IMG/VR virus record: IMGVR_UViG_3300020576_004709
Coordinates: 9,819 to 73,818 of that record
DNA length: 64,000 nucleotides
Reading direction: 5' to 3' (one strand)
Origin: a virus
Lineage: Duplodnaviria > Caudoviricetes
The notes beneath the pieces were generated by a model, which saw only the letters and a program-made list of their open reading frames with translations, was not told the origin of the DNA and made no database searches. Below are positions 4,279-59,788 of this stretch, one piece after another; the stretch's first letter is position 1; each line of letters starts with the position of its first letter. Both the position numbers and the translations under genes were made by a program.

Positions 4279-4338
4279 CGTTTCCTCGGGAGCGTTGGGC
4301 ACGGCCGACTCCGCGGCGGGTGGGGACAGATCCGGCGA

Positions 4339-41894: not shown

Positions 41895-42797
41895 TCACCA
41901 TGCAAGGGGAATCTCGCCCGTCCGTTGAAGTTCCCGCTTGCCGGGCGCGAGACGGTTCCAAATCAACTTGTGGATCGGCGTCCAGTTGCACCGGCAGTTG
42001 CACACGTCCTTCGCTTCGAGTCCCCGCACGACGACGAACGGCGTCGAGATCGGGTAGTACAGCCCGTCCTTCTCGCGGTGCCACGGCCGGGTGCGCTCGT
42101 CGCGGATCGCGTGGTATTGCCACGCGGGGAACTCGGCCCGCATCCCGCTCGCGTTCAACTCGTCCTGCTGCCCACGGTTGAGCGCGTCCATGACGTTCGT
42201 GCGCACGACCATCTGCGAGTATTGCGAGTGCAGGGGCGAAATGCCCGCGTCCTTGAGGATGCCTTCGACCGTCAGCGTGGCATCCTGGCCGCCGACCAGC
42301 TCGTTCGCGATGGCCTGCTGGATCTTCTTCGTGACGACGTCCTCCGTCGTGACCGCGACGTTGAACACTTCCCGCTGGATCCCCTGCGCGTAGTTGTTCG
42401 GGTTCTGCCCGACGCGCGGCACGAGCGAGGAGAAGTACCGGATGGCCGCGTGCGGTTTCAGCGGCCGCAACTCGGCGACCGCCTCGGCGAACTCCGGCAA
42501 CGTCACGTTCCCGGTCGAACCGTAGAAGCGGGTTCGCCCGACGAGGTCGCTCGGCACGATGACGGCCTCGACGACTTCGTTGAGCGCCGCCCGATCCTTC
42601 GCGTCGAAGATCCAGCCGAGGTTCCGAAGCACCTGGCCGGACGCGACCCGCTTCTTCAAGGCGCCTTCGACGATCGTGCTCAGCGCGATCGACCCGAACG
42701 CGACTGCCTCGGCCAGCCAGTCGGCGATCGACCGGCCGCCGGGTCCGGGCACGGTCTCGGGGTTCGGCGCGTCGGGCGGTCCTGCGTACTCGTTCAC
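41895..42797 (-). CDS. MuF / SPP1 gp7-like minor head protein
   Basis: VVRTNVMDALNRG...WQYHAIRDERTRPWH...CNCRCNW; GTG overlaps the stop of the giant ORF. Confidence 0.9.
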   Translation of the reverse strand: MNEYAGPPDAPNPETVPGPGGRSIADWLAEAVAFGSIALSTIVEGALKKRVASGQVLRNLGWIFDAKDRAALNEVVEAVIVPSDLVGRTRFYGSTGNVTLPEFAEAVAELRPLKPHAAIRYFSSLVPRVGQNPNNYAQGIQREVFNVAVTTEDVVTKKIQQAIANELVGGQDATLTVEGILKDAGISPLHSQYSQMVVRTNVMDALNRGQQDELNASGMRAEFPAWQYHAIRDERTRPWHREKDGLYYPISTPFVVVRGLEAKDVCNCRCNWTPIHKLIWNRLAPGKRELQRTGEIPLAW

Positions 42798-45700
42798 TTC
42801 GATTTCTCCGCTTCGGGGGTTCCTTCGGCCGGCTTCTTGTTCTCGCCCTTCAACTCCTCTTCGAGCTTCTTGAGGGCCTCCATCTTCTGCTTCAACTCGG
42901 CGGCCTTCGGGAACTCCTTGCCGATGCCCGCCTTCGTCCGTGCGATGTCGGCCTTCGCGCGGGCGATGTCGTCCTTCGCGGCGTCCGCGCCCTTCTGCAA
43001 GTTCCGGGCGACGTACTCGATCGACTTCAACGACTCGCCGACACCGAACCGGCTGTCGTGGTGTTTCGATTCGAGGTAGAGCTTTTCGCCCCGCCGCATG
43101 AGTTGGAGTCCCTTGAACTGCCCGACCCGCACGCCGATCCCGTAGGGGTCCTGCACGTCCTTCAACGCCTGTTCGAGGGCCTTTTCCGCCTCGGGCCGAT
43201 CGGCGTAGTCCTGGCCGTTCAGGTGGATCTTGAAATCGACGTGCTTCTCCATGTCCCCCGCGTCCTTCGCGAGGTTCTCGGCATGGCGCTCGAGCATCGG
43301 CAAGTTCCGCTCGCCAGACGCGACCGCCGCCTTGAGCTTGTACTGTTCCGAATCGTGGCGCTTCCGACCCGCGTGCAGGTTCTTCAAGTCCTCGTCGAGC
43401 TGGACCTTTTGCAGGACGCGGGGGTCGCCCGACGCGGCGGCCATCAACTGCTCGGGGGTGAGCTGCGCCGCGTCCTCTTCGCCCACGGCCCGCTGCGTCG
43501 TCCCGCCCGGCGTCATGACCTGTTTCACGAACCGGAGCTTGTTGCCGATGATCTGCCAGAACGTCCGGTCGAGACTGCCTTCCGTGACGTAGCTGACGAT
43601 CTTCACCTGCTGCTCGTGCGCGGCCTTCGAGGGGTCGTTCATGTTCCCCTGACGCCATGCCCGCCCGTTCCGCTGCTCGACGCTCGCCGGGGTCCACGGC
43701 ACGTCCAAGTGGTGCAGCGCGTACAGCTTGTCCTGGACGTTGACCCCGGTGCCCATCTTCTTCGAACTGCCGATGGCGACGAGGATCTTGCCTTCCCGCA
43801 TCGCCTGCATCGCGTTTTCCTTCTTCTCGCCGGCGAGCTTGGAGAAGTCCGCGATCTTCTCGCGCGGGATGCCGCCCTTGACGAGCTTCTCGATGATGTC
43901 GCCGTAGAGGTTGAAGGAGTTCCCCGCGTTCACGTCCCCTTCCTCGCCCGGCTTGTCGTACACGTCGGCGAGGCCGAGGTTGTCGTCGTCCCCGCCCTTC
44001 TCGCCAATGTCGTTGACCCCGATGTCGGAGAAGATCATTTGCGTCCGGCCCGGATGTTCCTTGTTGATCTTCAAGACGTTGCGGACCGCGAGGTTCGTCT
44101 TGCTGTCCGGGTGGTCGACCGCGTTGGGATCGAGGAGCCGCATGTCGAGCGCCCCCTTCCGCCCGTCCGTGCAGATGACGAGCATGTTGTCCTTACCGCC
44201 CCGCTTCAAGTTCTGGGCGCGGGTTTGGAGGCTGTCCATCAGGCGGGCGATCTCCGGCGTCTTCGGCGCGGTCTCGTAGGAGTCCTCGCGCTTCGGCCGG
44301 ATGAGGGACGCCGAGCCGTCGGGGTTCTTCATCGCGTCGGCCCGCTGGATGTCCAGCATTTGCCGGCTCATCTGCATGAGTTCCGGGATGTTGGTGAACT
44401 TCGCGAAGCGGGATACCGGCTTGTAGTCGCCGGCGACGGTGAACTCCATCTTCGTCTGCACGTCGCCGAAGGTGGACGCCCACGCATCGAACGTGTGCAG
44501 CCCGCGTTCCTTCAACTCCTGCGGTTGGAGGTAGCGCTGCATGTTGTAGAGTTCGGCCATCGTGTTATCGACCGGGGTGCCCGTCGCGAACACGACCCCC
44601 CGGCCGCCGTTGTTCTCCATCAACCACTTCGTGCGCATGTACATGGCCGTGGCCTTCGCGCTGCGGCCGGTCGGAACCCCCTTCAAGCCCTGCTGCTTCG
44701 TGTAGCACGGCAGCGACTTGTAGTTGTGGGCCTCGTCCACGAAGATGTGGTCGATGCCGGTCTCTTCGAAGAACACGGCGTCGTCCTTGCGGCTCGGGTC
44801 GAGCGCCTCTTGGAGCTTGGCCTCGAGGTTCTTCTTGGCGTTCTCCAGCGACGTCTGTGCCCGGCTCTGTTTGCCCTTCGGCTCGTTCGCCATCATTTCG
44901 GACCGCACGGCTTCGAGTTCCTTCAACTCGTCGCGAATGTGTTCGGCGACGGTCTCCGGCTTCATTTGGAGCATGTCGAGGTTGTCGTGCGTCATGATGA
45001 CCATGTCGTAATCGCCGGTCGCGATTTGGCTGATCGTCTTCTTCCGGTTCGCCTTGTCGAAGTTGTCCACGGTCGAGAGGATCTTGGCCCCCGGATACAG
45101 GTGTTGCAACTCGCGCGTCACCTGCTCGATGTTCGCCTTGAGGCACGCGATGGCCGGCTTCTTCGCGAGGCCGAGCCTGCGGAGTTCCATCGCGGCCGCA
45201 CCCATCGTATAAGTTTTCCCGGTCCCGACTTCGTGGCCGAGTAGCCCCTTGCCCGTCGTCACGACTTGCCACACCGCGTTCGCCTGGTGGTCGCGCAGCT
45301 TCACGCCGGGGTTCATGCCGGGGAATTGCAGGTGTTGGCCGTTGTACTTCATCGGCACGACGTTGTTGAAGTTGTCGTTGTAGTGCCGGTGCAGTCGGTC
45401 CCGGCGCTCGTCGTCGGTCCACAGCCATTCCTTGAACTTGTCCTTGATCTCCTGAATCTTGGCGTTCGCGTTGTCGGTCTCTTCCCGGTTCACGACGGTC
45501 GATCCGTCCGAAATCTTGTCGGTGACGCGCACGCTCGTGTTGTTCAGCGCGGCCTCGAACAGTTCGTCGAACGACTTGCGGGGCGTGGCCCAAACCTCCG
45601 TCGCGGTCTTGGTGTTGGCGACGTACCGCTTGCCCTCGTTCGAGTAGTTCGCGATCCACGCGCCGGAGTGCGGCAAGTAGCTGATCTTGAAGTGGTGGTT

Positions 45701-48700
45701 CTGGCCGCCGAGCAACGACGCGGCGAACTCCGAGACGTCGGACGACGGCACCCACGGCACGCCGAGCTTGGCTTCGATGTCCTCGTGCGACACGTCCTCG
45801 GGCTGAACCTTTTCGAGCGCCGCCACGTTCGCGGCGAACTTCGGGTCGGTCTCGGCCGCCGCCCGCGCCATGGCCAGCTTCCGCCGGACGTTCCCCGAAA
45901 GGTACTGGTCGGCGGGTTGCCACCCGGCCGACGGGTCGGAGTAGGCGAGGCCGGCATCGACCAAATGCTTTTCGACCGCCTCGCGCGGCAGCGACGTCAG
46001 CGCCGCGATCCGGTCCACGTCCACGCCGCCGGATTCGTGGAGCACGACGCCGAGCGCCTCGGACGGGTCGTTCGCCTTCTCCACCTTCGACACGGCCTTG
46101 ATCGTGTCCTTGTGGAAGATGTCGGCCTTCTCGAACTTGCCCGTCTTCGGGTTGGCCTTCTCCATCGCCAGCAGGATCGGCGAATCGGGGTCGGTTCGGA
46201 ACGCCGCCTTGTTGCCCTTCGCGTTGAGCGGTCCGTGTTCCTTGACGAATTGATCGTAGACCGCGTTCAGCATGGCCCGCGCGGCGGTCGCGTCGCCGCC
46301 CGCGATCTGCGTGTTGAGCACGTCCCGCATCGCGTCCCGCACGGTCATGTGGGCCTGGATCTTCGCCGCGACCGCCGGCTTCACGTCGGCCTGCTCAACC
46401 ATCTGGTCGCCCTGGCGGATGTAGACCTTCCCGCCGTCCACCTTGAACCCGCCCGCGCGAACCTCGCCCGGTGCCGGGGTTGCCGCCGGTCCCGCGTACC
46501 GCTCCTTCGGCGCGGTCGCCGCCGAGTAGAGGCCCTTCGGCAGACGGTCGATCGCCGCGGCGAGCCGCTGTTCGTAGTCGGCCGTTCGCGTGACGTTGAC
46601 GCTGTTGCCCTGGTACATGGAACCGGTTCGGTCCACCGTGCCGAGCACCTGGCCGGGATTCTCCGCGAAGTAGCGGTTGATCGGGATGGCCTCGCCGCCG
46701 GCCGGGTCGGGAACGGTCGTCGTCTCCATCCAGTTCGTCGCGGACGGCGGTTCGCCCGGCAACCGCTTCCGCAGGATGAGCATGTCGGTCACGACGTCGG
46801 TGCCGGCGTTCGACTTGTGGGCACCGGACGGGAAGCGGATCGCCGAGACGAGGTCGCACGTCTTGCCGAGTTGCTGGCGGATGGACGGGTCCATCTTGTC
46901 CAGCGTGCCAGTGCTCGTGATGTGCATCACGAGGCCGCCGGGCCGCACGAGGTCGGCCGATTTGAGGAAGAAATAATCGTGGATGTTCGCGCCGTGCTTG
47001 TTGTACTTCGGGTCGTGGACGCGGTAGTCGCCAAACGGCACGTTGGAAGCCACGAGATCGTAGAAGCCCTCGGGTGATTGGAGCTTCTCGAACCCGTGGA
47101 CCTTCACGTTCGCGTTCGGGTAGAGGTGGCCGAGCATCCCGCCGGTCGTCGGGTCGAGTTCGACGGCGGTCGTCTTCGTGTTGCCCGCGATGTGCGACGG
47201 CATCATGCCGAGGTAGTACCCGATCCCGGCCGACGTTTCGAGAAATCGCCCGCCCTTGAAGCCGAGGCGGTCGGCCATCTTCCAGTGGGCGTCGACCACT
47301 TCCGGGGCGGTGTAGTGCGCGTTGAGCTTCGAGGCGCTCGCCGCGTCGTACTCTTCCGGGGTGAGGAGTCCTTCGAGGATCTCTCGTTCCTTGCGCCACT
47401 CGTTGCCGTACCGGTTGAACAGGCCGGGGAACTGCCCCCACCCGACGTACCGCGACATGACTTGCTGCTCTTCCGGGGTCGCGGTGGTGCGGCCCTCGGC
47501 CTTGATCGCTTGAAGGGTCTTGATCGCCGCGACGTTGGCCGCGAACTTCGTCCGCGCGCCGCCCGTCGCGAAGTCCTTCGACGTGTACTGGAAATTGCCG
47601 GTGCCCGCGTCCGTCGGGTTCTCCGGCGTCGAGGGCTTGGCTACCGACTGTTCAGCGGGAGATTGAGCAACAACTTCCGGGTTGACTCCATCTGGTCGGA
47701 CATCCCGGCTTCCACTTCCCACGCCTCGGGCCGGGCGACTTCGTCCGGCGGGGTCGGCAGAAATTGACTCAGGACGAACTCTCTCGCCGCCGACGGGTCG
47801 TTGCCCGCCGTCTCCATCCGGTCCAGCAGGTCCATCGCTTCCCAAGTCTGCGACTGTAGGTACGGCTCGAAGTCGCCCGACGTCTGCATTTCCGCCGCCA
47901 GTTCCGGGAAGTTCCGCAGCAGGTGCGCCCGGAGCATCTGTTCCCACTGGTTGCCCGGCTGGTAGCCCTGGTTCGCCGCGTCGCGGGCCTTCGTTTTCCA
48001 GTTGGTTTCGCTGCTCATCGGATGCCGCCGGGGTTTGAGGTTCTGACCCTATGCTATTCGTAATACCCTGCCCATCGAGTAGTTCGCCCATCTTCGGGGA
48101 ATCTTTGACCTTCCGCGCGGTCGGTACCTTCTCGCCCTTGCCCGCGATCGGCTGGCCGGACGCCTGATCTACTTCCTGAACTTCGTTCCCGTTCACGCGG
48201 TACGGCTTGCCGTCCACCGTCCAGAGGTTGCCCCGCGACTTCTTGATCTTCGCCCCATCGATCGGGATGCGCTTGTTCTTCATCCACGCGCCGAGGACGT
48301 GCGCGTCGCTCATGTTCGACGTGGGCAAGTGCGGGTTCTCGCCCGCGTGCGCGTTCGCGTAGCCGTGCTTGAACGCCTCGCTCGGGTTCGTCGGGGCGGC
48401 CGTCAGCCCGTGATCCTCGTCGCCCGCGTAGCCCGCGGCGAAACTACCATCCGCGTCCTGCTTCACCTGGAACTTGCCGGAGTTGTCCCCCATCTGCGGC
48501 TTCGTCTCGCCCGGCTTCGGCATCGCGGATTCCATGCCGCCGTGCAGTTCGAGGGCCTTCTCCCGCGTGATCGGCTTCCACTTCACCGCGAGGGTCTTTT
48601 GGACCGGCGCGGCCTGGCCCGCCGGAACGCCCGCCGTCGCCGGCGGCTCCGCTGGCTTCGCGCCGCCCGGCGCGGCCTCGCGCCCGCCCGCGCCGCCGGC

Positions 48701-51700
48701 CGGCTTGCCGTCCTTGTCGAACTTCAACGAGCCGAGCGTCACTTGGCCCGGACCGGCGGCCGCATTAACTCCCAACGACTGACCATCAACTCCCAACGAA
48801 GCGGGCTTTTCTGTCGTCGGCTGCGCGTCGGCTGATTCCTTTGCGACCGGGTAGCCGTCTGCGGCCTTGCCAACGCGGTACCATTCGCCGTCCATCTTGA
48901 ACCGGCTGCCCGCCGCGCGCTGCTCGATATTCAATCCGTGCTCGGCGGCGAACTCCTCGGCTTTCTGGTGGTCGAGTTCCCGGTGCGCGTCGTCGAGGCT
49001 GAGTTGCTGGCCGGCCTTCGGCGAGGCGGCCGGGAGTTTGATGAGGTCGCCGAGGAGGTTGCGCGTCATGCCGGGCGGCGTCGGCTTGTCGCCCGCGTCC
49101 GGTGCCGGCGGGATGGCCTCGCCGGGGTTCGGGTCTTTTCGTGCCGGGGAAACCGATGCGGGTTGATCGTCGGCGGATTGGCCTCGGGCCTTCGCGTACT
49201 CGGCCCGCTGCTTGTCGCTGAGGGAGTTCCACGGAGTCTTGGCGAGGGTCTCGGCATACTCGTCGTCGTGGCCCGCGTTGGTCCAGTGCTCCAAGCGATC
49301 CTCGTGCGCGTCGGCCTGGTAGTCGTCGGAGGTGAGGTTCTTCTTGCCGAACGCTTCGTCGTTGAGATCGGGCGCGGCGGGCTTTGGCTGCTCGGCCGGC
49401 TTCGCGAGGAAGTCGCCGAGGATGTCGTCCTGCTGCTTCGATGCCGGTTTGGATTCGGGCTTTGCAATCTCGGCATCGAGCAAGTCGTTCGGAGCGTGCG
49501 GCGACGCGCTCAGACCTGGGGCTTGATTTGGGCCTGCTGGCTGAGGAGTTCCCGCGTCCCCCGTTCCGCCCGCTGCTTTTGCTCCGGCGTCATCGCCCAC
49601 GGCCGGGGCACCGGCGGGGGTTGTGAGGGGGCGGCCGAGTTCGGCGTCGATGGCGGCGTTGATGCCGGCAAGGGACTGCTGCTTGACATGATCCTTCTCC
49701 GTTTGCGACTTCGCCGTCGCGAGCTGGATGGCGGCCACCTTGACCGCCTGGGAAATCGGGCCGCTGCGGTTCTGCAAGCGGTTGAACACTTCGAGGCGGT
49801 ACGCGGAGTCCTGCTTCCGCTTCTGGTTCTCGTCGATCGCCAGCACGTTGCCGGCACCGGCCACCCGCCCCGCGCGGGCCTCGCTGGACACCGCCGCGTA
49901 GTCGCCGACCGCCTGGGAGAGCTTTCGCCCGGCGAACGACTGGATTTCAACCTCCTGGTCGAACGTGTTCTTCTCGTTCTCGAAATCGCCGAAGAGGTTC
50001 GTTTCCTTCTCGGTGTAGCTTCCCGCGTCGGCCATCTTCCGCGCGGCGGTCTCGATCTCGGAACGGTTCCATTCCCGTTCGCCGTTCTCGGCCCGGCGCT
50101 CGAGCTTCTGGAACAACTGCTCTTGCCTCGCGTGGTCGGGGAGATTCTTCGCCACCGCGACGGCGGTTGCCTCGTCGAGTTGGCCGTTCGTGAGCCGCTG
50201 GAACGACCGCTCGTTCAGGTTCGCGAGCGCGACCGCGTCTTGGGCCATCTTGCCCGAAACGCTCAGGCCGGCGTTGCGCAGGTGCTCGATGCCCTCGCCG
50301 GTGTCGCGCAGGTACTTCGCCGCGTCGATGGCCGTGCCACGCCCCTCGGCGATGTTGGCCAGCGCGCCGCGGCTGCGGGCTTCGACCGCGTCCTTCGCGT
50401 CGATGTACCGGACGTTCATCGTGTCCTGGCCGGTCCGCTCGGCGAGGCCGTGCCGGTTGTGGCCGTTGACGACCACGTCTTGACCGCTCGCGGGATCCCG
50501 CCACGCGAGGATCGCCCCGCCGAGTTCCGGGTTCCACTTCGCGGCGCCTTTGAGTTCGCTGCCGATCCCGCCCTCGTCGACGTCCATCACCTTGTACTGG
50601 AACCGCTTCGGGTCGCGTACCAAACTCGACGTCGGCACGGTGTAGACGTCCGACGGCGACGGTACCGACGGCGTACCGTTCGGTCGCTTGGCCACTTCGC
50701 CGGACTGGACGGCGGCAACCGGTCGATCGACCGACGCGCCGGCGGCCTTCGTCTCGGGTCGCAACCACTGCTGCATGGTCGATTCGGTCGCGCCGGCGGT
50801 CGCGTCCTTGCGGTACGGCTCGACTTCGTCGCCCTTCAAGAGCTTGTCCGACTGCTCGGTCCCGTAGGCCGCGCGCGGGCTGGCCCCGTGCATTCCGCCC
50901 GTCATGCCCTTGATGACCGCGTCGGCCATCTGGTGCCGGCTCATGCCGAACGTGTTGCCCCATTGGGTGTGCTTCTCGACCATGTCGGCGAGTTCGCCCC
51001 TCGGGATCTTGTGGAGGTTCTCTTGGAGATCCTTGACGTGCTCGCCGGTGAACTGGCCCTGTCCGTGCGCGGCGGCCGCGCGCTGCACCGCTTCCTGGTG
51101 CGGCGAGAACTGCGGCCCCTTGTCCTTGCCCGCGTGCGGGTCGGGGATGTAGCCGGCCTGGATGAGCGCGTGCGTCTGTAGCGATTGCACCATCGCGTCC
51201 CGCCGGCGGCCGTTGGTGAACCGCGTCGCGAGGCGGTCGCGCACCCGCTTCAACTCGTTCACGTTCAGCGCGTCGAGATGGCCCGCCAACTGGCGGAACG
51301 TCTTCGGAGAAGCCTTGTCGTTCATCACGTCGCCGGCCAGCTTGATCGCGTCGGCCTTCGACGCCTGGGTCTTGTCGTATTTCTGCTTCGACTCGGTCGC
51401 CGCCTGCGCGTAGTGCTGTTCGCCGCCCTGCTGCGCGTGGAGCGCGGCCTTCGCCTTCGGGCCGTACAGCGTCTTGCCCGCGTGGTCGCCCATCCCGACC
51501 GCCTTCACGTTGCCGGTCGAAGTCTGCTGCGCCATCCACATGAACGCGCGGGGCTGCTGCCCCGCCTGCATCGCGTCCATCGAATCGCCGGCCGAGTTGT
51601 CCCCGCTGAGCATGTCCTGCAAAACGTCGATCGCGTGCCCGAAACCGTGCTGGTGCCCCTCCATCTGGGCGCGTAGCCGCAGGTTCATGATCGCGAGCAG

Positions 51701-53302
51701 GATCGCCCGCGACATTTCGGGGTTGCCGTTAACCTGGCGTTCGCCCGGTGCCGGATCGGTGTCGACTTCGGTGCCCTCGCCCGACGCGCCTTCGAGGTCG
51801 GTATCGTCCTCGTCCTCGACGTCCTCGTGACCGCCGAACGCCGTGACGCCCTTGACCGGCTGGCCGTCCTTGCCGGGGATGCCGGCCTTCGGATCGAAAT
51901 CCGGCTTGCCGCCGCCGGCGGGCGGTGCGGTCGGAGCGCCCGGCACCGGAGCGCCGCCCATGCCACCCATTCCGCCCATGCCCGGAAACCCGCCGACCGA
52001 CATGCCGGACATGGCCGCGTTCTGGCCGACGAGTTTGTCGGCCGCGTTCTTCGGCGATTCGAGGCCGAGCGTCTGTTGCACCTGCGCGAGGGACAGGCCG
52101 TGCATTCCGAGGAGGTCTTGGCCGAGCTTGAGCACGTTGCCCCGCTTCAAGCGCTGGTCGGGCGACATGCCGCCGAGGAGCACGCGGGGAAGCCCGATGT
52201 CCCGGTCGGTGTAGTTGAGCTTCATCAACGGCTTGACGATCTGGTAGCGGATGACGTTACACACTTCCATCGCGAGCATCCATTCGCCGAGTTCCGTGAC
52301 GCCCCGCGCGACGGTCGAATCGCCGATGTCCGATCCGCTCTGCCCTTCGAGGAACGGCAGGTAGGCCCACCGCGTCGCCGTGTAGACTTCCTTCCGCCAG
52401 TCGTCGAGGGCCGACTGAAACGTCTCGCTCGTCCCGGTCGCGAAGTCGAGAACTTCAATCGAATCTTCCGGGGCGCAGTTGATGTAACCCATCGACCGGG
52501 CGCGTTCGAGGAGATCGGCCGCGACGAGCCTGGCTTCCGGGTCGCTGAACTTGCCGACCAAGAACGGCCCGGTGAAGTTCTGGATCATGATGAGCCGGAG
52601 CTTCGTCGTGCTCTCGATCATCGTCGCCGCCCGCAACGCGCCGCGGAACATGCTGCGGCCATACGGGTTCTTGAAGAGCGATTGGTAGCTGAAGAGCGTG
52701 AACTTGCCGGGGTCGAACAGGATGCCGGAGTTTGCCCGGTTCGCGCGGATGCCCACGACGTTTCGGAATGCGTCGATGTCCATGTTGACGTAGTTGACGT
52801 CGATGGGATCGAGCGCCGCGAGACAGAGGTATTTCCGCCACGAACCCATTTCCGGATAGTCAAGCACGATTTCGTTGAGGCCGTAGCCGTCGATGAGCGC
52901 ACCGGTCGCGATGTTCTTGATGACCGCGTGCCAACCGCCGTTCGCGCATTCGTCGATCGCCGCCTTCGCGTACTCCGCGGCCTCCTTGTTCTTCGGGTGC
53001 CGGTCGTCATACGGCAACACCTGCGGCTCGTAGGAACAGATCCGGGCAATCATCGAGTCGAACGCCGAAATCACCGTCGGCTCGCGAAGCATCAGTTCCC
53101 GGTACTTCTGGCGCTTCTCCGGCGTTTCGAGCGTGAGGTTCTCGAAGCTGTTCGGGTTCGTGAAGAACGACCGCATCCACTCCGTTCGGAACTGCCGGCG
53201 CTGGAACTCGGTCACGTCCGGCATGACCAGTTGCCGGCCGCTCGGCCCGGTGCCGTACTGGTTGAGCTTGTCGTTGGAGTTCGCGTACAGCGTCGAGAAC
53301 AT
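42794..53302 (-). CDS. 3502-aa fusion: portal (DUF935/Mu gp29-like) + ParB-like domain + N6-adenine MTase + SNF2/DEAH helicase (DarB-like polyvalent protein)
   Basis: Portal: YRELMLREP..NPYGRSMFR..GPFLVGKF; ParB-like: RFQYK..KWNPELGG..VVNGHNR; MTase: FLETSAGIG, SNVPFG; helicase: HEVGTGKT, VDEAH, ATGTP, QRNGRAWRQGN; no stop in 10.5 kb. Confidence 0.9.
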   Translation of the reverse strand: MFSTLYANSNDKLNQYGTGPSGRQLVMPDVTEFQRRQFRTEWMRSFFTNPNSFENLTLETPEKRQKYRELMLREPTVISAFDSMIARICSYEPQVLPYDDRHPKNKEAAEYAKAAIDECANGGWHAVIKNIATGALIDGYGLNEIVLDYPEMGSWRKYLCLAALDPIDVNYVNMDIDAFRNVVGIRANRANSGILFDPGKFTLFSYQSLFKNPYGRSMFRGALRAATMIESTTKLRLIMIQNFTGPFLVGKFSDPEARLVAADLLERARSMGYINCAPEDSIEVLDFATGTSETFQSALDDWRKEVYTATRWAYLPFLEGQSGSDIGDSTVARGVTELGEWMLAMEVCNVIRYQIVKPLMKLNYTDRDIGLPRVLLGGMSPDQRLKRGNVLKLGQDLLGMHGLSLAQVQQTLGLESPKNAADKLVGQNAAMSGMSVGGFPGMGGMGGMGGAPVPGAPTAPPAGGGKPDFDPKAGIPGKDGQPVKGVTAFGGHEDVEDEDDTDLEGASGEGTEVDTDPAPGERQVNGNPEMSRAILLAIMNLRLRAQMEGHQHGFGHAIDVLQDMLSGDNSAGDSMDAMQAGQQPRAFMWMAQQTSTGNVKAVGMGDHAGKTLYGPKAKAALHAQQGGEQHYAQAATESKQKYDKTQASKADAIKLAGDVMNDKASPKTFRQLAGHLDALNVNELKRVRDRLATRFTNGRRRDAMVQSLQTHALIQAGYIPDPHAGKDKGPQFSPHQEAVQRAAAAHGQGQFTGEHVKDLQENLHKIPRGELADMVEKHTQWGNTFGMSRHQMADAVIKGMTGGMHGASPRAAYGTEQSDKLLKGDEVEPYRKDATAGATESTMQQWLRPETKAAGASVDRPVAAVQSGEVAKRPNGTPSVPSPSDVYTVPTSSLVRDPKRFQYKVMDVDEGGIGSELKGAAKWNPELGGAILAWRDPASGQDVVVNGHNRHGLAERTGQDTMNVRYIDAKDAVEARSRGALANIAEGRGTAIDAAKYLRDTGEGIEHLRNAGLSVSGKMAQDAVALANLNERSFQRLTNGQLDEATAVAVAKNLPDHARQEQLFQKLERRAENGEREWNRSEIETAARKMADAGSYTEKETNLFGDFENEKNTFDQEVEIQSFAGRKLSQAVGDYAAVSSEARAGRVAGAGNVLAIDENQKRKQDSAYRLEVFNRLQNRSGPISQAVKVAAIQLATAKSQTEKDHVKQQSLAGINAAIDAELGRPLTTPAGAPAVGDDAGAKAAGGTGDAGTPQPAGPNQAPGLSASPHAPNDLLDAEIAKPESKPASKQQDDILGDFLAKPAEQPKPAAPDLNDEAFGKKNLTSDDYQADAHEDRLEHWTNAGHDDEYAETLAKTPWNSLSDKQRAEYAKARGQSADDQPASVSPARKDPNPGEAIPPAPDAGDKPTPPGMTRNLLGDLIKLPAASPKAGQQLSLDDAHRELDHQKAEEFAAEHGLNIEQRAAGSRFKMDGEWYRVGKAADGYPVAKESADAQPTTEKPASLGVDGQSLGVNAAAGPGQVTLGSLKFDKDGKPAGGAGGREAAPGGAKPAEPPATAGVPAGQAAPVQKTLAVKWKPITREKALELHGGMESAMPKPGETKPQMGDNSGKFQVKQDADGSFAAGYAGDEDHGLTAAPTNPSEAFKHGYANAHAGENPHLPTSNMSDAHVLGAWMKNKRIPIDGAKIKKSRGNLWTVDGKPYRVNGNEVQEVDQASGQPIAGKGEKVPTARKVKDSPKMGELLDGQGITNSIGSEPQTPAASDEQRNQLENEGPRRGEPGLPAGQPVGTDAPGAPAAELPGTGGGNADVGRLRAVPTVADLGSDGPAGPDGDGGQRPVGGERVRPESISADPAGRSRPARGVGSGSRDVRPDGVNPEVVAQSPAEQSVAKPSTPENPTDAGTGNFQYTSKDFATGGARTKFAANVAAIKTLQAIKAEGRTTATPEEQQVMSRYVGWGQFPGLFNRYGNEWRKEREILEGLLTPEEYDAASASKLNAHYTAPEVVDAHWKMADRLGFKGGRFLETSAGIGYYLGMMPSHIAGNTKTTAVELDPTTGGMLGHLYPNANVKVHGFEKLQSPEGFYDLVASNVPFGDYRVHDPKYNKHGANIHDYFFLKSADLVRPGGLVMHITSTGTLDKMDPSIRQQLGKTCDLVSAIRFPSGAHKSNAGTDVVTDMLILRKRLPGEPPSATNWMETTTVPDPAGGEAIPINRYFAENPGQVLGTVDRTGSMYQGNSVNVTRTADYEQRLAAAIDRLPKGLYSAATAPKERYAGPAATPAPGEVRAGGFKVDGGKVYIRQGDQMVEQADVKPAVAAKIQAHMTVRDAMRDVLNTQIAGGDATAARAMLNAVYDQFVKEHGPLNAKGNKAAFRTDPDSPILLAMEKANPKTGKFEKADIFHKDTIKAVSKVEKANDPSEALGVVLHESGGVDVDRIAALTSLPREAVEKHLVDAGLAYSDPSAGWQPADQYLSGNVRRKLAMARAAAETDPKFAANVAALEKVQPEDVSHEDIEAKLGVPWVPSSDVSEFAASLLGGQNHHFKISYLPHSGAWIANYSNEGKRYVANTKTATEVWATPRKSFDELFEAALNNTSVRVTDKISDGSTVVNREETDNANAKIQEIKDKFKEWLWTDDERRDRLHRHYNDNFNNVVPMKYNGQHLQFPGMNPGVKLRDHQANAVWQVVTTGKGLLGHEVGTGKTYTMGAAAMELRRLGLAKKPAIACLKANIEQVTRELQHLYPGAKILSTVDNFDKANRKKTISQIATGDYDMVIMTHDNLDMLQMKPETVAEHIRDELKELEAVRSEMMANEPKGKQSRAQTSLENAKKNLEAKLQEALDPSRKDDAVFFEETGIDHIFVDEAHNYKSLPCYTKQQGLKGVPTGRSAKATAMYMRTKWLMENNGGRGVVFATGTPVDNTMAELYNMQRYLQPQELKERGLHTFDAWASTFGDVQTKMEFTVAGDYKPVSRFAKFTNIPELMQMSRQMLDIQRADAMKNPDGSASLIRPKREDSYETAPKTPEIARLMDSLQTRAQNLKRGGKDNMLVICTDGRKGALDMRLLDPNAVDHPDSKTNLAVRNVLKINKEHPGRTQMIFSDIGVNDIGEKGGDDDNLGLADVYDKPGEEGDVNAGNSFNLYGDIIEKLVKGGIPREKIADFSKLAGEKKENAMQAMREGKILVAIGSSKKMGTGVNVQDKLYALHHLDVPWTPASVEQRNGRAWRQGNMNDPSKAAHEQQVKIVSYVTEGSLDRTFWQIIGNKLRFVKQVMTPGGTTQRAVGEEDAAQLTPEQLMAAASGDPRVLQKVQLDEDLKNLHAGRKRHDSEQYKLKAAVASGERNLPMLERHAENLAKDAGDMEKHVDFKIHLNGQDYADRPEAEKALEQALKDVQDPYGIGVRVGQFKGLQLMRRGEKLYLESKHHDSRFGVGESLKSIEYVARNLQKGADAAKDDIARAKADIARTKAGIGKEFPKAAELKQKMEALKKLEEELKGENKKPAEGTPEAEKSK
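47641..48018 (-). CDS. nested same-strand gene inside the giant ORF (TnpV-like helical protein, tentative)
   Basis: Protein-like composition (MLRAHLLRNFPELAAEMQTSGDFEPYLQ..EAMDLLDRM) where the giant frame reads as Gly/Arg/Pro-rich off-frame text. Confidence 0.6.
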   Translation of the reverse strand: MSSETNWKTKARDAANQGYQPGNQWEQMLRAHLLRNFPELAAEMQTSGDFEPYLQSQTWEAMDLLDRMETAGNDPSAAREFVLSQFLPTPPDEVARPEAWEVEAGMSDQMESTRKLLLNLPLNSR

Positions 53303-53390
53303 GGGGGTTGCCGCCGGTGAGGTCGTTGAGCCGTCTTGGGTTCGATCTTATGCGATGCCGCGAGGAAATGAAACGCCGTCGCCCGACCGC

Positions 53391-53436
53391 GAAGGTTGGT
53401 TGAAATTTGGTTCGCATTTGGTTCGCGTTTGGTTCG
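53391..53436. repeat. four 11-bp-phased TGGTTCG repeats
   Basis: Cores at 53397, 53408, 53419, 53430; inverted near-copy of 4053-4098. Confidence 0.75.
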
Positions 53437-53447
53437 TTTTCGAGAAA

Positions 53448-53486
53448 CGAGCGCATTTCGAGCGATTTCCGAGCGCAATTCGAGCG
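53448..53486. repeat. four 11-bp-phased CGAGCG repeats
   Basis: Cores at 53448, 53459, 53470, 53481. Confidence 0.65.
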
Positions 53487-53521
53487 CCGCCCGGTCGAAA
53501 TCGGGCGCGCACCACCGGCAT

Positions 53522-53890
53522 TATCCTCCAACACTGCTAACCGCAGGGAAGACAAGGGAATTAGAGTGCTGCGCCAACGTGGCCGAAACCACACCAAACG
53601 AGCGAACTTCGGAACCGGCAGTTGCGTCCTGTGACGGACTGAGTGTTGGAGTCCCCGTTGACAGCCATTGGTCAGAGCGGGGTTTATTGCAACTGCGATC
53701 GGCCCTCCCGAAGTCCTTCACTTCCCCTGCGGTGCCCGGTGGTGAGGCACCGCCCTCGACGGGGAACTCTCGCGGGTACGCTATGCCCCGCGCCGGCCGG
53801 CCGATAGGTAAGAACGCCGCGCGAACGGGCGAAAGCCCCGTTCTGAAGAACCATGCCGCGCTGAGGACGGCTATTCGGCTGTTGCTTTTT
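53522..53890 (+). ncRNA. candidate large structured ncRNA of unknown class
   Basis: More than ten stems in two multibranch domains, a 10-bp pseudoknot, a GAAA tetraloop and a terminal hairpin plus T5, in a gap with no credible ORF. Confidence 0.65.
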
Positions 53891-54134
53891 ATCGACCGCT
53901 TTGGTGGAAAGTGACCGAAATGCGTTGAAGTGGCCTATTCGGAATCGTATTATTCCGACGTCGACCGCTGCATTTCAATCGAGCCGCTCGAAGCTATCAA
54001 CTTCGGCGGCTTTTTCATTTCCTTCGCCTCATCGGTTCTAGGCCACCCCCGGCCGCGCGTCCAAGAAAAAATCCGCTTGACGTTCCGGGGAACATCAAGC
54101 GGATTGCTTAACAAGCCAAATCTGTCAAGTAATC

Positions 54135-55326: not shown

Positions 55327-55964
55327 CGTCCGCCCCTGTTCGGGTCGTCGAACTCGCGGCCGCACTTCGGGCAGACCGCGCAATACTTGGCGTGCGATTG
55401 TTCGGTTCGAACGTCGCAGTTCGTGCAGATGGGCAGCGCCTTCGGCCCCTTGACTTCGAGGCCGAGCAACGCGCGAATCTCGTTCGCGACGTGGATCATG
55501 TCAAGGTGAAGGCCGGTCCCGTCGCCGTACCTTCGCTCTTGGGTCGCGAGGATTTTTTCGAGCAGGCCACGCGTTCGCTTGGACCCGGCCCGCATGTCTT
55601 CGACCAGATCGCGAAGGAAGCCAATCGAATCGGGAGTCATCGGTTCCGAGTTCCCGATGAGTTTCCGCAGCATCGCGTTCTCGTCCTGGGCGAGTTTCAG
55701 GGCCGCGATGTCGCCGGCCGGGTCGCAGCGGGTTTCGAGGTCGTGGACGAACCGGCGGACAGCCTCGGGCAGTTCGTTGATGTTCTCGGGTGTCGGTTGC
55801 CAATCGTTGTTCAGCCGTAGAAACTCATCCGCGAGGCGCTCGGCATCCGCGACGATGCAGACAGTGGATCCCCGGTGTGTCTCGTGGTAAAGCGTCCGGC
55901 CTTTTATGGCGATGGCCACTAAATCGGCACGCTTCGGATATGGCTTTGCTTGCTCACTCATCAC
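55323..55964 (-). CDS. hypothetical protein with C-terminal Zn ribbon
   Basis: WQPTPENINELPEAVRRFVHDLETRCDPAGD; CTNC...CAVCPKCG. Confidence 0.75.
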   Translation of the reverse strand: MMSEQAKPYPKRADLVAIAIKGRTLYHETHRGSTVCIVADAERLADEFLRLNNDWQPTPENINELPEAVRRFVHDLETRCDPAGDIAALKLAQDENAMLRKLIGNSEPMTPDSIGFLRDLVEDMRAGSKRTRGLLEKILATQERRYGDGTGLHLDMIHVANEIRALLGLEVKGPKALPICTNCDVRTEQSHAKYCAVCPKCGREFDDPNRGGR

Positions 55965-56185
55965 TTGGCCCTCCCCGCCCGAAGGATGCGGTCCTGCTCT
56001 TCGGCGCTCATGCCGTCGAGAATCGTTTGCCGGTAGATCGCCGTACTCGCGTCGTGCGCGTCGTTCGGCTCAATGCCGATCCTGACGCGGTCGCCCTTGA
56101 TCTCCGAGAGCGAGACGGTCAGGCGGAAGCCGTCGGGACGGCCGACGATGATCGCCTCGTGGCGCTTGACAGAAAGTACGAGCAT
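55961..56185 (-). CDS. csrA: CsrA/RsmA-like RNA-binding regulator
   Basis: MLVLSVKRHEAIIVG...LTVSLSEIKGDRVRIGIEP...AIYRQTI. Confidence 0.8.
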   Translation of the reverse strand: MLVLSVKRHEAIIVGRPDGFRLTVSLSEIKGDRVRIGIEPNDAHDASTAIYRQTILDGMSAEEQDRILRAGRAK

Positions 56186-56268: not shown

Positions 56269-58023
56269 TCAATTCGAGAACGCGGCCCCGGCGAGCGCCC
56301 TGGCCTGCTTCACTTCGACCGCGTTGCCGATCTGCTTCACCTGCTCGCCGAGGTTCCCGGTGATGATGTAATCCGGGTCGAATCCCATAGCCGCCTTCAA
56401 CTCGTGCGGCCGCAGCATTCGGAACAGGATGTCGATCGCCACCTGCTCGCTCCCGTTCATTTGTGGTTCGATGAGCGCGAACCGGTCCTTTGTCGTGACC
56501 GTGGCGAGTGGCTCTTCGGTCGATGCCGGTCCGCTCGTGCCGTAGTACGGCGTGATGTAGGGTTGAACGATAGCGTGCGACTTGCCCCCGGCCATGATCG
56601 TTCCGAGCGGGTCGTTAATGCTCTGCGCTCGCCGTTCGTGCCCGCCCCCGTCCTTGTCCGCTCCGTGGTTCGCCTGGACGATGTACGGCTCGACGATCGC
56701 CGTGTGACTGCCGCCCGCCGTGATGGTCGGGTGCGGCTCGCCGACGTCGCGGGCCGTGCGTTCCAACGCCTTGGGGTCGGTGCCCCGCATGTCGCACAGG
56801 TACGGTTGCACGACGCCGATCTCGCCCCGCTTGGCGGTCGTCACCGTCGGCAACGGTTCGTCAACGCTCAACTCCCGCCCGCCGTGCGTGAGCTGGACCA
56901 TGCAGCCGCGGGCGATGCCGTGCGTCTGCCCGCCGGCGACGACCGTCGGGAGCGGTTCTTCGACCGAATGGCAACGCGGGGCCTGGCCCTCGCGCTCGCC
57001 GTAGTTCGTCGGCACGATGACGCCCTCGGCCAGCGCTATGCACCGCCCGTTCGTCGCGTCGATCGTGCGAATCGGGTTATTGATGTCGTCGACGTCCATC
57101 CGCTCGAACTTGCGGTGCGGCAAGATGAAAGCGAAGCGGTTGCCCTGACTCGTGATCGTGGGCAAAGGCTCGTTGAGGCCGTGGACCGATCGCGCGTCGT
57201 TGCCCCGCTCCTTCAAGTAGTTCATCGCCACGATGAACGGCTCGGCGTTCGCGCCGCCGAACTTCTTCAAGCCCGCCTCGATGCGGGCCATCGTGTTCGC
57301 CGAGAGCGGTCGGCTGCGGGTGAAGATCGACGTGCCGAGGAGGTTCCAGTCGATGATCTCGCGGGCACCCCGCCACTTCGGGAGCCGGCCGAAGAGGTTG
57401 TCACGCTGATCCTTCGAGTGCGTCGGCTCGGGCCACACGATGCGGCGACGACCGCCCTTAACCGCCTGGATGAACAGACGCCGCCGGCTTGTCGCCGCCC
57501 CGTAGTCGGCGGCGTTCAGCGTCTTGTACTCGACGCGGTAGCCGCTGGCCACGAGCGCCGCGATGAACGCGCGGAACGTTTCGCCCTTCTTCGAGGCGAG
57601 CGCCTTGCCGTTCGAGCCTATTGGCCCCCAAGATTGGAACTCGGGTACGTTTTCGATCAAGACGCGGTCCACCTGCAGCGCGTTGACCCATTCGAGCACG
57701 ACCCACGCGCTCGCCCGGCTCTGGTCGTTCTTCGGCTTCCCGCCCCTCGCGTTCGAATGGTGCGTGCATTCGGGACTGGCGACGAGCAAGTCGAGGCGTC
57801 CGCCCGGCACCGCCTCGCCCGGCTTCAACCGCGTCAGATCCTGACAGAAGTGATTCGCTTTGGGGTGGTTCTTAGCGTGCGTCTCGACCGCGCGGTCCCA
57901 ATGGTTCACCGCGACGAGGTCCAGCTTGCGGCCAACCGATTCCGCGTACTGCGCGACTCCGGTCGAAGTCCCGCCGCACCCGCAAAACAGGTCGGCCACC
58001 TTGATAGGCTTCATGCGTTCCAT
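56269..58023 (-). CDS. DNA cytosine-5 methyltransferase with repeated variable region
   Basis: DLFCGCGG, ASPECTHHS, IENVPEF, SRRRLFIQ, QIGNAV; seven P-x-x-T repeats. Confidence 0.92.
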   Translation of the reverse strand: MERMKPIKVADLFCGCGGTSTGVAQYAESVGRKLDLVAVNHWDRAVETHAKNHPKANHFCQDLTRLKPGEAVPGGRLDLLVASPECTHHSNARGGKPKNDQSRASAWVVLEWVNALQVDRVLIENVPEFQSWGPIGSNGKALASKKGETFRAFIAALVASGYRVEYKTLNAADYGAATSRRRLFIQAVKGGRRRIVWPEPTHSKDQRDNLFGRLPKWRGAREIIDWNLLGTSIFTRSRPLSANTMARIEAGLKKFGGANAEPFIVAMNYLKERGNDARSVHGLNEPLPTITSQGNRFAFILPHRKFERMDVDDINNPIRTIDATNGRCIALAEGVIVPTNYGEREGQAPRCHSVEEPLPTVVAGGQTHGIARGCMVQLTHGGRELSVDEPLPTVTTAKRGEIGVVQPYLCDMRGTDPKALERTARDVGEPHPTITAGGSHTAIVEPYIVQANHGADKDGGGHERRAQSINDPLGTIMAGGKSHAIVQPYITPYYGTSGPASTEEPLATVTTKDRFALIEPQMNGSEQVAIDILFRMLRPHELKAAMGFDPDYIITGNLGEQVKQIGNAVEVKQARALAGAAFSN

Positions 58024-58090: not shown

Positions 58091-59788
58091 TTAGAAACTC
58101 GCGTCCTTCGGGTTCCAGCCGATCTGAGACGAGCGCCACCGCTCCTTCGTCTCGGCCTGGGCGGTTTGATCCTTCTTCGCGGCCGCGATGGACGATTGCA
58201 CCTTCACGTCGAGCCGGCGGGCCAGCATTTCGAGCGCGTCCGGGCCGTCGTCGTGCAGGCCGGTGAACAGGTTGCTCAACTGGTGGACGAGTTCCCGGCC
58301 GCCCCGCGTGTTGCGCACCCGGATCTGGCGGCGCGCGAGGAACGTGTCGAGGCGCCGGATGCGAATCTCCTTCGGGTCCGAGTTGTCGATCCCGTGGAAC
58401 TTCGGACGGTTGATGCCCCGCTCCTTCGCGATACGCTGGAGTTCGGTGTCGATGAGGTCGCCGAAGATGTTCGTCTCGGCCGTGAGTTCCTCGACGCCGT
58501 TGAACTGCTCGACGATCTGGATCGTGCGGCCGAGCATCGAGTTCGCCGCCTCGCGCTGGAAGTCGGCATCGACGTAGATCTTGCCGTCCACGGCCGAGAC
58601 GCCGCCCCAAACGTGGGCCTGGAAGTCCCCCGGCTTGTCCGTCTTCCCCTTGCTCGGGTCGAGCGCGTAGCCCTTGAACCGCAGCGCGGCCGGCCACTCG
58701 TTGAAGTACATAGTCTCGTGGTTGAAATACTCCTCGCCCCACTCGCACACGCCGCCCGCGCTCGTGATCGCCTGGTACTCGGTGTCGAAAGCCTTCGGTC
58801 CCCGCTCGGCCCGAGCGAGCATGAGCGCGAGCAACGGTTTCCACGAGGGCCAGAGCACCCGCGCACCACGCTCCATTTCCTTCTGGTTGCAACGGTAGAA
58901 CTCGGCCGCCGTGTCGTTCCGCCGCGGGTCGCCGAGGTTCGTGAGCAGCGATTCCCACTTCTCCCAAAGGTCCATCCGCTCCGGCCAGTTCATGATCGCC
59001 TGGAAAGACTTGCCTTCCCAACGAGGCGTCTTTGTGAGCTGGACCGCGATACAGTCCCGGTGGAGCGCCGTCCCGACCGAAATGAAATTGGTGTCTTCGC
59101 CGCCGGCCGGGATGACTTCCATCGTGAGCCAGTCCCAAGCGTTGATCCGGCGCTTCTCGCTCGTGATGTCCTTGTTGTTCTGGACGTCGTCGAGGACGAT
59201 CTTCGTCGGCCGCGCCTCGCCCCGCTTGATGCCCCGGATCGAACTGCCCTTCCCATACGCCTCGACGCGAATACCGTTGCGGGTCTCGATCTCGTCGGCC
59301 TTCCACACGAGGCCCTTGCCGTGCGCCTGCGGATAGTGCTCCTTGATGAGCGGGTTCAGTTCGAGTTGCTCCTTGATCTCGAACAGGAACTTTTCGGCCT
59401 GGCTGTCGGTGTCGGAGAAGATGACGATGTACCGCTCTCGCCCCTCGCAGATGTCGCGCAGCAGGTCGATGAGCGTCGTCCAGACCGATTTGCCCGACTC
59501 GCGGGGGGCGATGAAAGCGTGCCGCGATCCCCGCTTCTGCCAAGCGTTCGAAAGGTTGATGTCGAGGTAGCGGTGAAACAGGCTCGGCTCAGACTTGCAG
59601 AATCGCGGGGTGAACGCCTGGCCCCACTCAATTAGACTCCGCGCCGGCTGCTGGATGGTAGCCGTTGAGGAGTTGTTGACCGGCGGCGGTGGGGGCAACG
59701 GCGGGAGGTTCGTCCACCACTCCCTTACGGCGGAACGTGGAGCGAAGTACCTCAGCGACCTTATGTTGGAGATCGAGCGGGAGCGCAT
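58091..59788 (-). CDS. terL: terminase large subunit (true start uncertain, probably near 59630-59700)
   Basis: IAPRESGKS, IVLDDVQ, VGTALH, ALDPSKG, HDDGPDALE. Confidence 0.9.
   Translation of the reverse strand: MRSRSISNIRSLRYFAPRSAVREWWTNLPPLPPPPPVNNSSTATIQQPARSLIEWGQAFTPRFCKSEPSLFHRYLDINLSNAWQKRGSRHAFIAPRESGKSVWTTLIDLLRDICEGRERYIVIFSDTDSQAEKFLFEIKEQLELNPLIKEHYPQAHGKGLVWKADEIETRNGIRVEAYGKGSSIRGIKRGEARPTKIVLDDVQNNKDITSEKRRINAWDWLTMEVIPAGGEDTNFISVGTALHRDCIAVQLTKTPRWEGKSFQAIMNWPERMDLWEKWESLLTNLGDPRRNDTAAEFYRCNQKEMERGARVLWPSWKPLLALMLARAERGPKAFDTEYQAITSAGGVCEWGEEYFNHETMYFNEWPAALRFKGYALDPSKGKTDKPGDFQAHVWGGVSAVDGKIYVDADFQREAANSMLGRTIQIVEQFNGVEELTAETNIFGDLIDTELQRIAKERGINRPKFHGIDNSDPKEIRIRRLDTFLARRQIRVRNTRGGRELVHQLSNLFTGLHDDGPDALEMLARRLDVKVQSSIAAAKKDQTAQAETKERWRSSQIGWNPKDASF

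Follow-up and report, generated by a model that had tools for sequence, protein, structure and literature searches.

The DNA analysed here (hereafter the window) is a stretch of 64,000 nucleotides (nt) of a tailed-phage genome, bases 9819-73818 of the complete 73.8-kb virus record IMGVR_UViG_3300020576_004709, which has direct terminal repeats. The element under study lies in a gap between an RNase_T-type exonuclease gene and the gene for a giant portal-fusion protein. Comparative analysis indicates that a real structured RNA of about 425 nt, so far unclassified, is encoded in this gap. We consider it probable that this is a minus-strand RNA forming a self-contained accessory non-coding RNA (ncRNA) module. 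The gap and the RNA are positioned as follows:

53303-54134: gap with the RNA element, 832 bp
53493-53916, minus strand: full structured RNA, about 425 nt, predicted 5' end near 53916 and 3' end near 53493

The principal evidence is a distant homologue. Two covariance models were used, R1, built from the window and its strain variant L008 (53720-53570, minus strand), and R2, built for 53892-53715 with an author-specified structure. Searched against all loci collected in the analysis, R1, representing domain 1, matched L011:490-632 and the identical L012 at full length (55.8 bits, E about 6e-10), and R2, representing domain 2, matched the adjoining L011:332-497 (59.8 bits, E about 2e-13). The 17.7-kb Logan contig L011 comes from a different study and was picked up for its 48%-identical exonuclease. 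Beyond the exonuclease gene and the RNA it has nothing else in common with the window, and the order of these two is swapped. At the nucleotide level, the RNAs of the two are 59% identical overall.

Across the window, L008 and L011, 21 of the 91 modelled pairs were changed on both sides yet still paired, which none of 500 shuffles reached; the independent lineages number two (window with L008, and L011 with L012), and these counts therefore represent a single deep comparison. In the alignment of domain 1, 97.8% of cells were paired and 11 pairs were double-changed, as compared to 4.2±1.7 after shuffling (0/500) and 0-3 in slid controls. The corresponding values for the 5' domain were 99.2% of cells and 10 pairs, against 3.4±1.5 after shuffling (0/500) and 0-2 in slid controls. 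Whole helices were rewritten between the two lineages: P2 from GCAGUUGC/GCAACUGC in the window to CGGAUCGC/GCGAUCCG in L011, H6 from GCGGUGCC/GGCACCGC to UCGCCCCC/GGGGGCGA, and H3 from GAACGGG/CCCGUUC to UCCGG/CCGGA. Furthermore, L011 folded by itself yields the identical three-way junction. Compensatory changes beyond both shuffled and slid controls, seen here between two deep lineages, are the general hallmark of a conserved structured RNA.

The extent of about 53493-53916 was assigned because a terminal helix, P0, joins the ends, and it replaces the roughly 370 nt of the initial annotation of this DNA. The predicted architecture is:

53913-53916 with 53493-53496, minus strand: P0a, outer terminal helix, GGUC with GACC
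53903-53907 with 53512-53516, minus strand: P0b, inner terminal helix, CCACC with GGUGG
53876-53887 with 53810-53819, minus strand: H1, long-range helix AAG.AAC.GCCG with CGGC.GUU.CUU, enclosing H2 and H3
53855-53871, minus strand: H2 hairpin, two one-sided G-U changes
53823-53843, minus strand: H3 hairpin, 4 compensatory pairs
53771-53792, minus strand: H4 hairpin CGCGGG/CCCGCG with the 10-nt loop GCAUA(G/C)CGUA
53722-53766, minus strand: H5, UUCCCC/GGGGAA, enclosing H6, 1 compensatory pair
53729-53753, minus strand: H6 hairpin GCGGUGCCU/GGGCACCGC, 4 compensatory pairs
53604-53716, minus strand: domain 1, three-way junction P1-P4, folding z-score -3.8, 11 double-changed pairs
53707-53716/53604-53613, minus strand: P1
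53700-53703/53614-53617, minus strand: P1b
53689-53696/53618-53625, minus strand: P2
53653-53682, minus strand: P3
53626-53639, minus strand: P4
53574-53597, minus strand: hairpin rich in G-U pairs, UUCG loop, restricted to the window lineage
53642-53651, minus strand: pseudoknot 5' strand CUCCAACACU, in the single-stranded junction J3/4 of domain 1
53526-53535, minus strand: pseudoknot 3' strand AGUGUUGGAG, about 107 nt downstream of CUCCAACACU
53543-53552 with 53525-53534, minus strand: local hairpin, the alternative partner for the pseudoknot 3' strand

Most of these elements varied in a manner that kept pairing. P0b reads CUGCC/GGCGG in L011, with one compensatory pair and one C-G to U-G change. 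P0a slides by one pair in L008, where G53916>A loses a pair and C53497>U gains one, and its position in L011 is occupied by GACUCU/AGAGUC or GGAC/GUCC. H4 has one compensatory pair (C-G to G-C) and a near-identical loop in L011. H1 is invariant in all three sequences, which makes it neutral evidence.

The 10-bp long-range pseudoknot recognised in the initial annotation is kept and covaries in L011. All ten pairs are present in the window and in L011, and L008 keeps nine and has a gap at the tenth. In L011, A53646-U53531 is replaced by U-A, and the pairing, ACUCCAUCACUC/GAGUGAUGGAGU, extends to 12 bp (L011 557-568 with 669-680). The local hairpin is likewise retained in L011 in 8 of its 8 pairs, with one double and two one-sided changes. 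Pseudoknot and local hairpin are mutually exclusive, each is conserved, and their competition at the 3' side suggests a conformational switch. The motif GGAG(G/U)AUAA(U/A)GCCGG is conserved directly after the pseudoknot segment.

All motif pairs listed in the initial annotation were found in the sequence at the coordinates given there, among them ACTTCGG at 53606 with CCGAAGT at 53708, GCAGTTGC at 53618 with GCAACTGC at 53689, and CTCCAACACT at 53526 with AGTGTTGGAG at 53642. Comparison with L011 separated them further. ACTTCGG/CCGAAGT, GCAGTTGC/GCAACTGC, GTCC/GGAC and CCCCG-TGAC/GTCA-CGGGG are kept there, mostly with compensatory changes, as are TTCCCC/GGGGAA, GCGGTGCC/GGCACCGC, the CGCGGG stem and the GAACGGG hairpin. 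The CTTCA/TGAAG helix that was thought to close "domain 2" has two of its five pairs broken in L008; U53720 pairs instead with G53599, and this U-G becomes C-G. For CGGC/GCCG, L011 offers no equivalent. The GAAA loop does not keep its sense, the homologous L011 hairpin carrying GAAA on the other strand. What had been read as a 3' terminator, the "hairpin plus T5", is on the strand opposite to the RNA, and its A-run supplies the 5' strand of H1, which is invariant.

Strand was assigned from evolutionary toggles between Watson-Crick and G-U pairs. With flanking positions included, 11 pairs toggle in a manner allowed on the minus strand as compared to one on the plus strand, and P0b and the local hairpin add three more that are minus-only. 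A classic wobble intermediate is seen in P1, where one pair reads G-C in L011, G-U in the window and A-U in L008. As the toggles favour it by 11 to 1, the RNA is placed on the minus strand, in the sense of the flanking genes in both contigs. This is the opposite of the earlier proposal that G-U pairs and the GNRA loop favour the plus strand. As a whole, the proposal of a novel large phage ncRNA stands in its core, on the strength of covariation, the pseudoknot and the lack of an Rfam match, and falls with regard to strand, 3' terminator and the helix closing domain 2.

The strain variant offers a shallower comparison. L008 is a 2762-nt contig that carries the stretch at about 96% identity and was reached through its exonuclease variant. 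Among its differences from the window are a 1-nt deletion (53642), a 10-nt deletion and a new stop after 8 codons of a 57-amino-acid (aa) open reading frame (ORF). Within 53574-53720 it has five substitutions. T53580G and A53591C form a clean compensatory pair, found also in run X7, in the hairpin 53574-53597, which is not clearly conserved in L011; three substitutions in the same interval convert minus-strand G-U pairs to Watson-Crick. Together, the five substitutions stabilise the minimum free energy (MFE) structure of the window, with a change in folding free energy of -2.8 kcal/mol as compared to +3.3±2.7 for random mutants of the same type (P about 0.01). A sequencing-run look-up revealed the stretch in river, groundwater, aquatic and wastewater metagenomes.

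The window sequence by itself does not prove structure, and the case rests on comparative data. Perfect inverted repeats of at least 7 bp number 8, versus 4.0±1.8 in dinucleotide shuffles, 9 of 200 of which reach 8; this mild excess corresponds to a factor of about two (P about 0.03-0.05). Of 300 shuffles, 15 (5%) contain a 10-bp repeat. Domain 1 (113 nt) alone stands out in folding energy, on the minus strand only, with a z-score of -3.8 and an MFE frequency of 0.34 (plus strand, z -1.75). The MFE z-scores of the whole region (-0.06 for the plus and -0.99 for the minus strand) and of the L011 domains are uninformative (-1.6 to +0.8).

At gathering thresholds, Rfam 15, whose families include tmRNA, RNase P, group I/II introns, riboswitches, GOLLD, ROOL, HEARO, pRNA and 6S, matched only transfer RNA (tRNA) in the window, in concordance with the initial annotation, which had assigned the element to no known class and proposed this search as a check. 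At E<=10, the gap, L002 and L011 yielded scattered matches of 13-20 bits, none of them common to the window and L011. A tRNA-like element was considered for a weak mascRNA-type match at 53465-53522 (20 bits) and rejected: ARAGORN found nothing there, and L008 deletes 10 nt of the site. A protein-coding or decayed gene was rejected as well. GC content at third codon positions is 0.52-0.62 in the gap ORFs as compared to 0.8-0.9 in the real genes of the phage, the 1-nt deletion, 10-nt deletion and new stop disrupt all gap ORFs in L008, and the long ORF on the opposite strand of the window is unrelated to that of L011. The gap ORFs had no Pfam or PHROG match, and the gap does not resemble the RNase H gene occupying this slot in L002. 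The element is non-coding and single-copy.

DNA-level homologues were not detected. Phage and plasmid collections searched by blastn contained none, scanning viral, metagenome and genome contigs with exact patterns returned chance matches only (L005, L009 and L010), a search for related loci starting from the portal gave no homologue, and no RNA was found in the other exonuclease-bearing contigs L007, L013 and L014. The exonuclease has a handful of relatives, and the giant portal protein has one (L002, 90% identity) in a collection of 5.8 billion proteins. The leaders of L002 and L006 were examined as possible homologues of the RNA and rejected, with no blastn similarity and no R1 or R2 match.

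Those two relatives define the genomic setting of the RNA. The first ~129 nt of the gap, comprising the exonuclease-operon terminator and a conserved block, are kept in L002 and L006, and the last ~130 nt, comprising an iteron array and a promoter-like TTTCAT-17-TAAGAT before the portal gene, are kept in L002. Between these flanks L002 holds ~400 nt of non-coding DNA and an RNase H-like gene, and L006 holds ~530 nt of non-coding DNA with DUF4326 and other genes. Since L002 and L006 hold unrelated sequence between shared flanks, the RNA appears to occupy an exchangeable cargo slot. Two features of the upstream flank are shared with other phages:

54070-54105, minus strand: intrinsic terminator (16-bp stem, then a T-run) that ends the upstream operon and parts the exonuclease gene from the RNA module
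53945-54040, minus strand: conserved upstream block, common to the window, L002, L006 and L011 in alignments

The terminator is kept in L002 and L006, and an analogous one lies at L011 83-100. The block consists of TAGAACC..GGAAAUGAAAAA, a hairpin with a covarying stem (53982-54010) that differs in each of the four phages, an inverted repeat, GGAATAATAC (across the four phages GGAAT(A/C)ATAC) and CCGA.U..CACUUC. It is probably a promoter/operator, and in the window it contains a good sigma-70-like TTGAAA-18-AATAAT on the minus strand (53978-53949) with a predicted start near 53942.

Several side observations concern the same region. The opposite strand of the block has a promoter-like site, with a -10 that reads TATTAT in both the window and L002 but TATGAT in both L006 and L011, followed by a canonical intrinsic terminator ~30 nt later (window 53925-54015, plus strand; L011 301-212, minus strand). 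These could delimit a candidate small RNA of ~55 nt (53960-54015), which would be antisense to the sequence upstream of the large RNA and whose terminator stem differs per phage and at whose hairpin the 163-nt contig of run X9 stops. Tiny ORFs of 15-22 aa (MKK...) could also begin at the strongly conserved GGAAAUGAAAAAG (54012-54040, minus strand); as their sequences are not the same in the window, L002 and L006, they are probably not coding. GC-rich non-coding stretches of 350-500 nt stand behind the same conserved block in the relatives (L002:4744-5100 and L006:6012-6506), preceding the RNase H-like gene in L002 and the DUF4326 gene in L006. Unrelated to each other and to the large RNA, they could be further unclassified RNAs or long leaders. 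Finally, L008 contains an additional DpdA gene, of the 7-deazaguanine DNA modification family, between the exonuclease gene and the terminator (L008:1317-2126), and this insertion marks a second swappable slot.

The self-contained character of the module is proposed because the RNA has its own upstream terminator and block, closes on itself by P0 and is separated from the next gene by promoter-like sites, and because that next gene differs between the lineages and relatives put protein-coding cargo in the same slot. It would thus be a "moron-like" ncRNA module standing behind the terminator of the upstream operon and a promoter/operator-like block, in a site of cargo exchange. The RNA would act as a folded entity, a protein- or ligand-binding scaffold or possibly a switch, and not as a leader dedicated to one gene. 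Its 3' end is perhaps set by trimming back to P0, conceivably, and this is speculative, by the adjoining RNase_T-type exonuclease, which is linked to it in both lineages.

A number of observations weigh against this interpretation. Besides the covariation counts being a single comparison, the alignments behind them were fitted to models that had been made for the minus strand. Plain G-U counts are symmetric between the strands, and only the evolutionary toggles separate them. In the global MFE structure of 446 nt the L008 substitutions are no more structure-preserving than random ones, and domain 2 (5' half) alone gave no stabilising signal between the window and L008. The opposite strand of the upstream block has a good -10 (TATTAT/TATGAT) and a canonical terminator, which renders its promoter role uncertain. 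No intrinsic terminator was found on the minus strand after the large RNA, and this fits a leader equally well as a stand-alone RNA.

The alternative that survives best is that the same minus-strand RNA is a cis-acting 5' leader, riboswitch- or attenuator-like, which would control the portal/late operon in the window and the exonuclease in L011, with the switch between pseudoknot and local hairpin as expression platform. We regard this as rather unlikely. It would account for the RNA lying close to, and in the sense of, the downstream gene in both lineages without an intervening terminator, for the two mutually exclusive conserved pairings at the 3' end, and for the conserved GGAG(G/U)AUAA(U/A)GCCGG that follows the pseudoknot. 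The downstream genes themselves, however, are unrelated, the portal fusion ~190 nt away in the window and the exonuclease ~110 nt away in L011. Promoter-like sites intervene in both (TTTCAT-17-TAAGAT in the window, kept even in the RNA-less L002, and TTGACT-16-TAGACT in L011), and the RNA is self-closed through P0. Neither alternative pairing makes a terminator. Moreover, the Shine-Dalgarno-like GGAGGA of the window is followed by an AUG that L011 does not have, and the ORF behind it is shortened to 8 codons in L008. Neither a terminator nor a start codon is conserved in both lineages and the classes of downstream genes differ, in discordance with riboswitch or leader membership.

A plus-strand RNA running from near 53526 to a terminator at 53866-53890 (weak) or, better, at 53982-54015 (strong) appears quite improbable. 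A canonical hairpin with a T-run does stand at the plus 3' side in four of four phages, with a covarying stem. The sequencing-run look-up listed no RNA data set for the stretch as such; the single contig of run X9, which is labelled RNA-Seq, covers 53854-54011 (163 nt) and stops at that hairpin, leaving the rest of the element uncovered; contigs cannot show strand, the run may contain DNA, and strand, expression and ends are not deducible from it. Watson-Crick covariation is blind to strand, and RNAalifold energies are alike on both strands (-132.0 versus -136.7). Against these stand the 11 (+3) changed pairs that stay paired on the minus strand only, versus one on the plus. A plus-strand RNA in the window would bear A-C mismatches at three places in its helices where L008 or L011 has Watson-Crick pairs, its domain 1 would be less stable and less well defined, by the z-scores given above, and G53911>T in L008 disrupts a plus-specific 15-bp hairpin. 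Upstream of 53526 no promoter-like site was found for it.

Least credible of all is a reading without any functional RNA, in which the gap, as a recombination hot spot, would hold filler or a DNA-level element such as part of a second origin beside the iteron array, and its stems would be GC-rich by-products: whole-region MFE z-scores near zero, the lack of the segment in the 90%-identical relative L002 and the adjacent iteron-like repeats shared with a replication gene would agree with it, yet 21 double-changed pairs and a covarying pseudoknot at 59% identity, in phages otherwise sharing almost nothing, are unexpected for neutral DNA, and G-U-specific toggles indicate RNA and not duplex DNA.

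Returning to the self-contained ncRNA module, we compared it with known systems. GOLLD and ROOL RNAs are roughly 600-800 nt in size. Like them, the window RNA is large, multi-domain, structured, non-coding, carried as phage accessory cargo and recognised only through covariation; unlike them, it is ~425 nt long, lies 45 kb from the tRNA genes, comes from GC-rich freshwater/groundwater phages, and shows no Rfam 15 sequence or structure match to either even at E<=10. These large ornate ncRNAs, often prophage-borne, have been studied by cryo-electron microscopy (bioRxiv 10.1101/2024.12.08.627333) and are discussed in PMC5737381.

The freshwater-1 motif (RF02979) resembles P3-P4 (53630-53691, minus strand) in its consensus, with the internal loop CUC/A and CCCxGCUCUG..CAACxGG, and also stems from freshwater metagenomes. 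However, the window reaches 19.2 bits where 72 is the gathering score, the motif spans 62 nt of the 425-nt RNA, and L011 gave no match even with 96 nt searched alone, so the RNA is not placed in this family and the resemblance is taken as a lead.

Packaging RNA of the phi29 type (pRNA) is about 120-174 nt long and has loop-loop pairing between copies as its hallmark. It resembles the window RNA in being phage-encoded, having a three-way junction and lying near head-assembly genes. In contrast, the window RNA is without an Rfam match, its long-range pairing is intramolecular, from the junction to a 3' segment, and the L011 RNA lies in an early-looking region beside the exonuclease gene, not the portal. 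With riboswitch leaders it shares a compact fold locked by a pseudoknot, exclusive 3' pairings and the sense of the downstream gene; it differs in being far larger than typical aptamers, matching no known class, preceding unrelated genes and having neither a terminator nor a start-codon sequestration conserved in both lineages.

A CsrA sponge of the CsrB/RsmZ type had been suggested in view of the few AGGGA/ACGGA motifs and of a phage csrA gene at 2 kb distance. GGA motifs show no enrichment, numbering 9 versus 9.1 expected on the plus strand and 7 versus 6.1 on the minus strand. Furthermore, L002 and L006 keep csrA without the large RNA, so that the occurrence of csrA in the window, L002 and L006 is independent of the presence or absence of the RNA. 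The sponge role was accordingly abandoned.

We tentatively propose, as an idea that may or may not hold, that this RNA is the founding member of a new class of large (~425 nt), pseudoknotted, two-domain, exchangeable phage RNAs, which would act as autonomous folded machines behind a shared promoter/terminator cassette and be linked to an RNase_T-type exonuclease that may mature them. If such a class exists, its members might be switchable scaffolds, ribozymes or self-assembling particles similar to ROOL and GOLLD. To our knowledge, large intricately folded bacterial and phage RNAs are rare, and nearly every understood class is a ribozyme, a riboswitch, a ribonucleoprotein or an RNA-only assembly. 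The present case adds a complete phage genome with a new large RNA of well-supported predicted architecture, in which a helix joins the ends and a three-way junction is combined with a pseudoknot that covaries and a conserved alternative pairing. The portable expression cassette and the natural "minus" controls, relatives with other cargo, make the RNA directly testable. From the methodological side, folding-energy z-scores overlook real structures in GC-rich phage DNA, and a single-lineage model sufficed to detect a distant homologue.

Every gene around the RNA region is on the minus strand. The neighbouring genes are:

58091-59788, minus strand: terminase-like gene
56269-58023, minus strand: C5 methylase gene
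55961-56185, minus strand: csrA homologue, present in the window, L002 and L006, with a weaker match in L007
54135-54923, minus strand: RNase_T-type exonuclease gene
42794-53302, minus strand: portal-fusion ORF of 3502 aa, with a Mu-type portal domain at its start, then SNF2 helicase domains

The initial placement of the element between terminase and portal was correct in a loose sense: its immediate neighbours are the exonuclease and portal-fusion genes, and the terminase-like gene is 4.2 kb off. The portal-fusion ORF is uninterrupted, with the Mu-type portal domain (aa 67-413) fused to SNF2/helicase domains. This architecture is repeated in a 3568-aa relative, and the portal ORF of L006 exceeds 1930 aa.

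Iteron-like TGGTTCGC repeats, phased at 11 bp, occupy 53396-53439 immediately upstream of the portal gene, and this array is kept in L002. They recur at 3841-4099, inside a DUF1376/YdaU-like replication gene (3457-4302, minus strand), and the copies in the window, 10 as compared to 4.2 expected, are clustered at these two places. A second array, of four to five GCGCUCGAAAU-like units spaced ~11 nt apart, lies directly 3' of the RNA at 53440-53490; about one such unit (10 nt) is lost in L008.

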